Positions 34,076-34,129 of a stretch of 64,000 nt of DNA are shown here, piece by piece. The translations under genes and the position numbers were made by a program. Under the pieces are notes generated by a model. That model was not told the DNA's origin, did no database searches, and saw nothing but the letters and a program-made list of their open reading frames with translations. Positions within the stretch are counted from its first letter, which is position 1, and every line of letters begins with the position of its first letter. Location: assembly GCF_057098645.1 (NCBI RefSeq), contig NZ_CM169472.1, one strand, 5' to 3'.

Positions 34076-34129
34076 TCCGTTGACAAATTGGCAATATGAT
34101 AACATCCGTTGACAGATTGGCAACGGATG
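34076..34129. promoter_or_regulatory. Direct/inverted repeat pair immediately upstream of higB; candidate HigA operator
   Basis: TCCGTTGACA(A/G)ATTGGCAA at 34076-34094 and 34106-34124; second copy sits inside the palindrome CATCCGTTG-N9-CAACGGATG (34103-34129). Confidence 0.45.

Follow-up and report, generated by a model that had tools for sequence, protein, structure and literature searches.

Two dyad-symmetric sites upstream of an IS2-split higB as the probable autoregulatory control region of the chromosomal higBA module of Escherichia coli

The stretch of DNA considered here (64 kb, called the window throughout) contains the Escherichia coli locus fadH-higA-higB-rlmG, which was recognised from its open reading frames and from the annotation of strain K-12. 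On the same grounds fadH is placed at 29938-31956 on the plus strand and rlmG at 34349-35515 on the minus strand. The two genes of the toxin-antitoxin module lie between them, also on the minus strand. The higA gene (32001-32417) is intact and encodes a protein of 138 aa matching PDB entry 5IFG_B (E = 1e-86), with the Pfam domain HTH_3 in residues 84-135; the cognate antitoxin carries a DNA-binding domain, as is expected where a type II toxin-antitoxin operator is present. The higB gene is split by the insertion sequence IS2 into a 5' fragment with codons 1-27 (33985-34064, including one copy of the target duplication) and a 3' fragment with codons 28-104 (32414-32653, delimited by the open reading frames and the IS2 boundary), and the HigB protein reconstructed from both matches the Pfam family HigB_toxin. 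The ATG of higB was located at 34064-34062, and the repeats discussed below are found immediately 5' of this start on the minus strand, just where the preliminary description of this DNA had put them. A repeat and dyad region directly upstream of higB within the order fadH-higA-higB-rlmG is the arrangement of the K-12 type.

The IS2 copy (32654-33984, minus strand) is 1331 bp long and was identified by insC and insD, with the Pfam domains HTH_Tnp_1 and rve, and by its terminal inverted repeats. It is inserted after codon 27 of higB, 80 bp inside the gene and in the orientation of higBA, and has generated a target duplication of 5 bp, CCTAG on the plus strand, which is present at 32649-32653 and 33985-33989. 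When IS2 and one copy of the duplication are removed in silico, the resulting 2056 bp align with the uninterrupted higBA locus of E. coli O145:H28 RM12761 with 0 mismatches, and the adjoining 12 kb on the right-hand side (window 34000-46000) shares 100.0% identity with E. coli O145:H28 genomes. The window is accordingly assigned to this lineage, and a Shigella origin, at first suspected because of the IS disruption, is rejected. Because the IS2-excised sequence is identical to that of RM12761, the insertion is a very recent, simple and strain-specific transposition. It had been remarked that the regulatory region survives intact in spite of the disrupted toxin gene. The region is indeed intact, but this carries no evolutionary meaning, as the flanks are 100% identical to uninterrupted O145:H28; with so recent an insertion the intactness of the operator is uninformative on selection. 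An open reading frame of 88 aa (32414-32680, minus strand) begins with an ATG at 32680 in the right end of IS2 and runs in frame into higB from codon 28 onward, and its stop codon shares bases with the start codon of higA. Its product could be a shortened, chimeric HigB, or the frame could help to couple the translation of higA.

Upstream of higB a direct repeat of 19 nt, TCCGTTGACA(A/G)ATTGGCAA, is present in two copies at 34076-34094 and 34105-34123. When up to 3 mismatches are tolerated, the 64-kb window has no further match, and in none of 100 dinucleotide shuffles were two or more matches reached. The repeat finder extends the copies to two plus-strand units of 25 nt (34070-34094 and 34099-34123), which are 88% identical and follow each other with a period of 29 bp. 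Of the earlier statement that two copies lie 30 bp apart the copies are retained and the spacing is corrected, since it amounts to 29 bp from start to start. The claim that the second copy is embedded in an extended palindrome was found to be right: CATCCGTTG-N9-CAACGGATG occupies 34103-34129 and encloses this copy, and its arms can be prolonged to 12 nt, giving CATCCGTTGACA-GAT-TGGCAACGGATG with a 3-nt centre and arms that match at 11 of 12 positions (92% complementary). The plus strand from 34060 to 34130 reads tgCAT tcttcatcacg TCCGTTGACAAATTGGCAA tatgataaca TCCGTTGACAGATTGGCAA cggatg. The palindromic REP/BIME elements, which were found as inverted repeats at 34246-34334 between rlmG and the promoter, are separate from this region. 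Matches to the REP-derived Rfam family naRNA4 at 34196-34377 reached 27.7-38 bits, where the gathering score is 59.5, and are sub-threshold, and over the higB-upstream repeats themselves the Rfam search gave no family match.

Each of the repeats encloses one dyad of 17 bp with the pattern GTTGNC-N5-GNCAAC, and it is this dyad that constitutes the recurring functional unit. The distal dyad, O1 (34108-34124, minus strand), reads GTTGCCAATCTGTCAAC on the higB strand, fits the pattern fully (10 of 10 fixed positions), and the -35 hexamer lies within it. The proximal dyad, O2 (34079-34095, minus strand), reads ATTGCCAATTTGTCAAC and agrees at 9 of 10 fixed positions; one of its half-sites is the imperfect ATTGCC, and palindromic flanks are absent. 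The centres of O1 and O2 are 29 bp apart, and the whole layout on the higB strand is CATCC-GTTGCCAATCTGTCAAC-GGATGTTATCAT-ATTGCCAATTTGTCAAC-GGACGTGATGAAGA-ATG. The promoter scan returned a sole sigma-70-like promoter on this strand, TTGCCA-16-TATCAT, with 10 of 12 consensus matches and a TG upstream of TATCAT. The predicted -35 hexamer TTGCCA of this promoter, PhigBA, lies at 34118-34123 and the predicted extended -10, TGtTATCAT, at 34096-34104 (TATCAT itself at 34101-34096), both on the minus strand. O1 overlaps the -35 hexamer and the upstream spacer, and O2 would start directly 3' of the -10 and cover the predicted +1, if the latter is placed about 7 nt past the -10. Dyad-symmetric sites overlapping the core promoter are a characteristic of type II toxin-antitoxin operators. 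The folding of the 5' leader gave a z-score of 0.05 and no significant structure. Two additional matches to the dyad in the window (9/10, at 7828 and 51476) were rejected as further HigA-like sites, because about 2 are expected by chance per 64 kb according to an estimate that assumes equal base frequencies.

The higBA module of E. coli K-12 (ygjNM) has a single promoter, mapped by primer extension, and the inverted repeats drawn at this promoter were presented as putative sites of binding (Christensen-Dalsgaard et al. 2010, PMC2814082). In the same work a K-12 fragment of 132 bp was active without higBA and repressed by HigA supplied in trans, and its induction was Lon-dependent (PMC2814082); the primers of the lacZ fusion map to the window-equivalent positions 34059-34190. 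The preliminary description had proposed a comparison with published HigA operator sequences, and set against this HigA-repressed fragment the window differs by one SNP in 76 bp. The remaining 75 of the 76 promoter/operator positions agree with K-12 (MG1655), and the -35, the -10, O2 and the ATG are identical. The SNP falls in O1, at the degenerate fifth position of a half-site (GGCAAC in K-12, GTCAAC in the window); it leaves the palindrome perfect in K-12 (12-3-12) and 11/12 in the window, whose two units are in turn the better direct repeats. Locus and synteny are thus the same as in K-12, and the differences are the O1 SNP and the higB gene split by IS2. Reviews that cite Jadhav et al. 2020, among them PMC8138530, give HigA and HigBA similar affinities for the E. 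coli operator, in the nanomolar range. A paper from 2025 mentions O1-O2 sites for E. coli hig and sets them apart from the operator sites of Proteus vulgaris (PMC12266136), and the bioRxiv version of that paper makes no mention of E. coli hig. A full-text literature search with the operator sequence strings gave no match. It can be said that the higBA promoter/operator has already been described in K-12 and that the present observation is correct but ordinary.

The 76-bp region occurs in 2831 of 5426 complete E. coli genomes, with the exact K-12 allele in 1505 and the exact window allele in 473, among them O157:H7 and O145 strains. The T of the window at the O1 SNP is shared by E. whittamii and Escherichia sp. 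E1V33, and a variant in Ecol_745 is changed in a palindrome flank alone. The natural variants in E. coli alter solely the degenerate fifth half-site position or the flank. About 48% of the 5426 genomes are without the higBA promoter region. In E. coli EC10, the sole example examined (locus L039, 1427-1701, corresponding to about 32490-34140 of the window), a deletion of approximately 325 bp has taken away the promoter with its two dyads and the first 79 or so codons of higB, and the higA gene of 138 aa is intact. In one genome, E. coli UTAK-1 (locus L043, about 1590-1640, corresponding to 34086-34114 of the window), exactly 29 bp are deleted between the direct-repeat units, which fuses O1 and O2 into one dyad with loss of the -10; this looks like repeat-mediated slippage at the operator pair. 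E. coli SCU-105 (locus L040, 866-2186) carries an IS3-family insertion in higB, 136 bp deeper into the gene than that of the window, and since it is independent of the IS2 described here, higB has been hit repeatedly.

A scan for HigA with one genome per species yielded 37 loci, in 27 of which a HigB gene precedes higA. These 27 higBA loci range from Escherichia, Kluyvera and Pseudocitrobacter to Oceanospirillales, Chromatiales and Alteromonas, and their HigA proteins are 42-100% identical to the query. Taken over all 27 loci, the 80 nt that precede higB contain 39 perfect (10/10) dyads and 49 with at least 9/10 positions; elsewhere in these loci, over 80,417 positions, no match of at least 9/10 occurs. 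Apart from locus L020, in which both dyads are 14 nt further from the ATG, the distal dyad begins between -53 and -61 and the proximal one between -27 and -31, counted from the higB ATG; the spacing of the dyads is 26-30 bp with a mode of 28. In related loci the left half-site of the distal dyad is again the -35 (TTGACA or TTGCCA) and a -10-like hexamer (e.g. TATAGT, TATGAT) lies between the dyads; in distant loci the proximal dyad is followed by a Shine-Dalgarno sequence of the GGAG type. The two dyads are mutually inverted in the distant relatives (GTTGAC..GGCAAC, then GTTGCC..GTCAAC) and direct copies in Escherichia, and this is the reason why a direct repeat is visible there. On the side of the protein, the segment PEIGSKSMVSRVL in the HTH_3 region is identical in 28 of 28 HigA sequences, whereas the rest diverges to about 42% identity, the N-terminal domain freely. 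An invariant helix-turn-helix together with an invariant half-site is what is expected if HigA reads the dyads, and dyads conserved together with the antitoxin across homologous loci are a further characteristic of type II toxin-antitoxin operators. A grammar of the operator common to the family, in which GTTGNC-N5-GNCAAC occurs two times at a distance of about 28 bp and is read by the invariant PEIGSKSMVSRVL helix, was not found described in the literature searched.

In some of the other loci higA is not preceded by higB. A metagenome-assembled genome of Acidiferrobacteraceae (locus L015) has an orphan higA without higB; about 120 bp ahead of this gene one perfect dyad, GTTGACTAATTGGCAAC, is kept at 1381-1397, and a second, degenerate site comes after the dyad. 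In Escherichia sp. MOD1-EC7003 (locus L004, 592-1479) and in E. albertii (locus L005, 1-786) higA is preceded not by higB and instead by a gene of the DUF1266 family; their higA is 94-96% identical and no operator dyad lies upstream.

Taken together, the cluster is very probably the control region through which the chromosomal higBA (ygjNM) module of E. coli regulates itself, with two operators for HigA dimers that occlude the -35 and the start site. The suggestion of a candidate HigA operator in an autoregulated promoter, with which this analysis began, is supported by the promoter overlap, by the conservation of the dyads in 27 loci, by the invariant HigA helix-turn-helix and by the repression of the K-12 fragment (PMC2814082). 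HigA dimerises via its N-terminal domain and has a C-terminal helix-turn-helix of the XRE type. One dimer would sit on each dyad with one half-site per recognition helix, the half-site centres being about 11 bp apart; that both dyads are bound, and by which contacts, is inferred. HigA on O1 and O2 would block RNA polymerase, and the repression would be lifted when Lon degrades HigA under stress. A cooperative contact between the two HigA dimers is not obvious, because the spacing of 29 bp puts them on different faces of the helix.

The same logic is known from the hig operon of Proteus vulgaris Rts1, where O1 and O2 lie over core promoter elements, each is bound by a HigA dimer with a helix-turn-helix, and the toxin gene comes first (PMC12266136). 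Nevertheless, the helix-turn-helix of Rts1 HigA is N-terminal (PMC6987408), whereas the HigA of the window is of the K-12 type with a C-terminal one. O2 of the window covers +1 and its Rts1 counterpart covers the -10; the recognition sequences are also different, the two operator sets being distinct (PMC12266136), so that the sites of the window do not belong to the Rts1 type. The antitoxin of Salmonella SehAB, a HigBA homologue, resembles HigA in its N-terminal dimerisation and C-terminal helix-turn-helix. Two palindromes of the sehAB promoter are said to overlap the -35 and the -10 (PMC7160566), but the source of this description is De la Cruz 2013, a paper which has been retracted, and SehAB was for that reason set aside as a comparator. 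There is no Salmonella locus among the 37 loci of the HigA scan, in which each species is represented by one genome.

It could be argued that the distal extended palindrome alone is the HigA operator and that the proximal copy is a non-functional relic of a duplication of 29 bp. In a review the E. coli higBA module is given a single operator (PMC10135005), O2 is imperfect (ATTGCC, 9/10) and devoid of palindromic flanks, and the orphan higA of Acidiferrobacteraceae retains one perfect dyad only. Moreover, the proximal dyad is degenerate in four related loci (L009, L010, L013 and L016, with 5-7 of 10 positions), for which reason O2 may be dispensable. Yet the proximal dyad keeps 9-10 of 10 positions in the majority of the 27 loci, even where HigA identity has fallen to about 42%, which is unexpected for a relic, and in all higBA loci except L020 it is held at -27 to -31; E. 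coli O1-O2 sites are moreover named in the plural (PMC12266136). The relic explanation is accordingly regarded as unlikely, and two HigA operators remain the preferred reading of the cluster.

In three enterobacterial lineages the distal dyad lies in a perfect palindrome with 12-nt arms, namely in MG1655 (locus L001, 1097-1123) and in loci L010 and L011. The flanks of the palindrome differ among them and yet stay symmetric (CATCC in MG1655, TTAA in L010, CCACAA in L011); an RNA hairpin function or the template-switch correction of quasi-palindromes could account for such symmetry. The distal palindrome might act also, or instead of an operator, in the RNA: transcribed from upstream, it would fold into a hairpin which halts transcripts arriving from rlmG and insulates higBA. 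Its fold is stable, -12.9 kcal/mol in the window (z = -3.8) and -20.1 in K-12 (z = -6.2), the stem is followed by the U-rich tail UUAUCAUAUU, and arms of 12 nt with differing but symmetric flanks recur in the three lineages. However, no terminator was called on the minus strand, where the T-run is too poor for an intrinsic terminator, the window allele weakens the stem, and distant relatives keep the 17-bp core alone without the long stem. The symmetric flanks are equally well explained by template-switch correction, which is a mutational effect. A role of the palindrome as a hairpin is therefore considered quite improbable.

That the repeats are promoter elements or a slippage duplication without any repressor binding, or the site of a regulator other than HigA, is hardly credible: a hexamer resembling a -35 is indeed present in each unit (TTGCCA when the higB strand is read, TTGACA on the other) and the units are substrates for slippage, as the deletion of 29 bp in UTAK-1 illustrates, but the dyad symmetry is conserved well past the -35 hexamer and also at +1, where a -35 is not needed, the motif accompanies higBA into unrelated contexts and co-varies with the invariant HigA helix-turn-helix alone, HigA represses the K-12 fragment (PMC2814082), and the scan called no promoter on the plus strand. 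A plus-strand promoter formed by the TTGACA hexamers was rejected for this last reason and because no plus-strand gene lies downstream.

If the cluster is the HigA-controlled promoter of higBA, PhigBA now reads into the truncated higB and IS2. On the minus strand no intrinsic terminator was predicted within IS2 or before higA, so transcripts from PhigBA or from IS2 may reach higA. A rather doubtful, though conceivable, extension is that a HigA-controlled, Lon- and stress-inducible promoter drives the IS2 transposase genes and then higA, as a toxin-less autoregulated loop which couples IS2 expression to the turnover of the antitoxin. Should read-through extend to higA, the operators would still close a feedback loop of HigA without the toxin.

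Beyond correct annotation the significance of the finding is small: the control region of higBA is narrowed down to a pair of defined dyads. Minor results obtained along the way are the natural decay variants and the operator consensus of the family, which can be used for annotating HigA operators in other Gammaproteobacteria. The population data illustrate, on a small scale but concretely, the decay of a chromosomal toxin-antitoxin module, by loss of promoter and toxin with higA kept, by independent IS insertions in higB and, in one strain, by repeat-mediated deletion of 29 bp at the operator.
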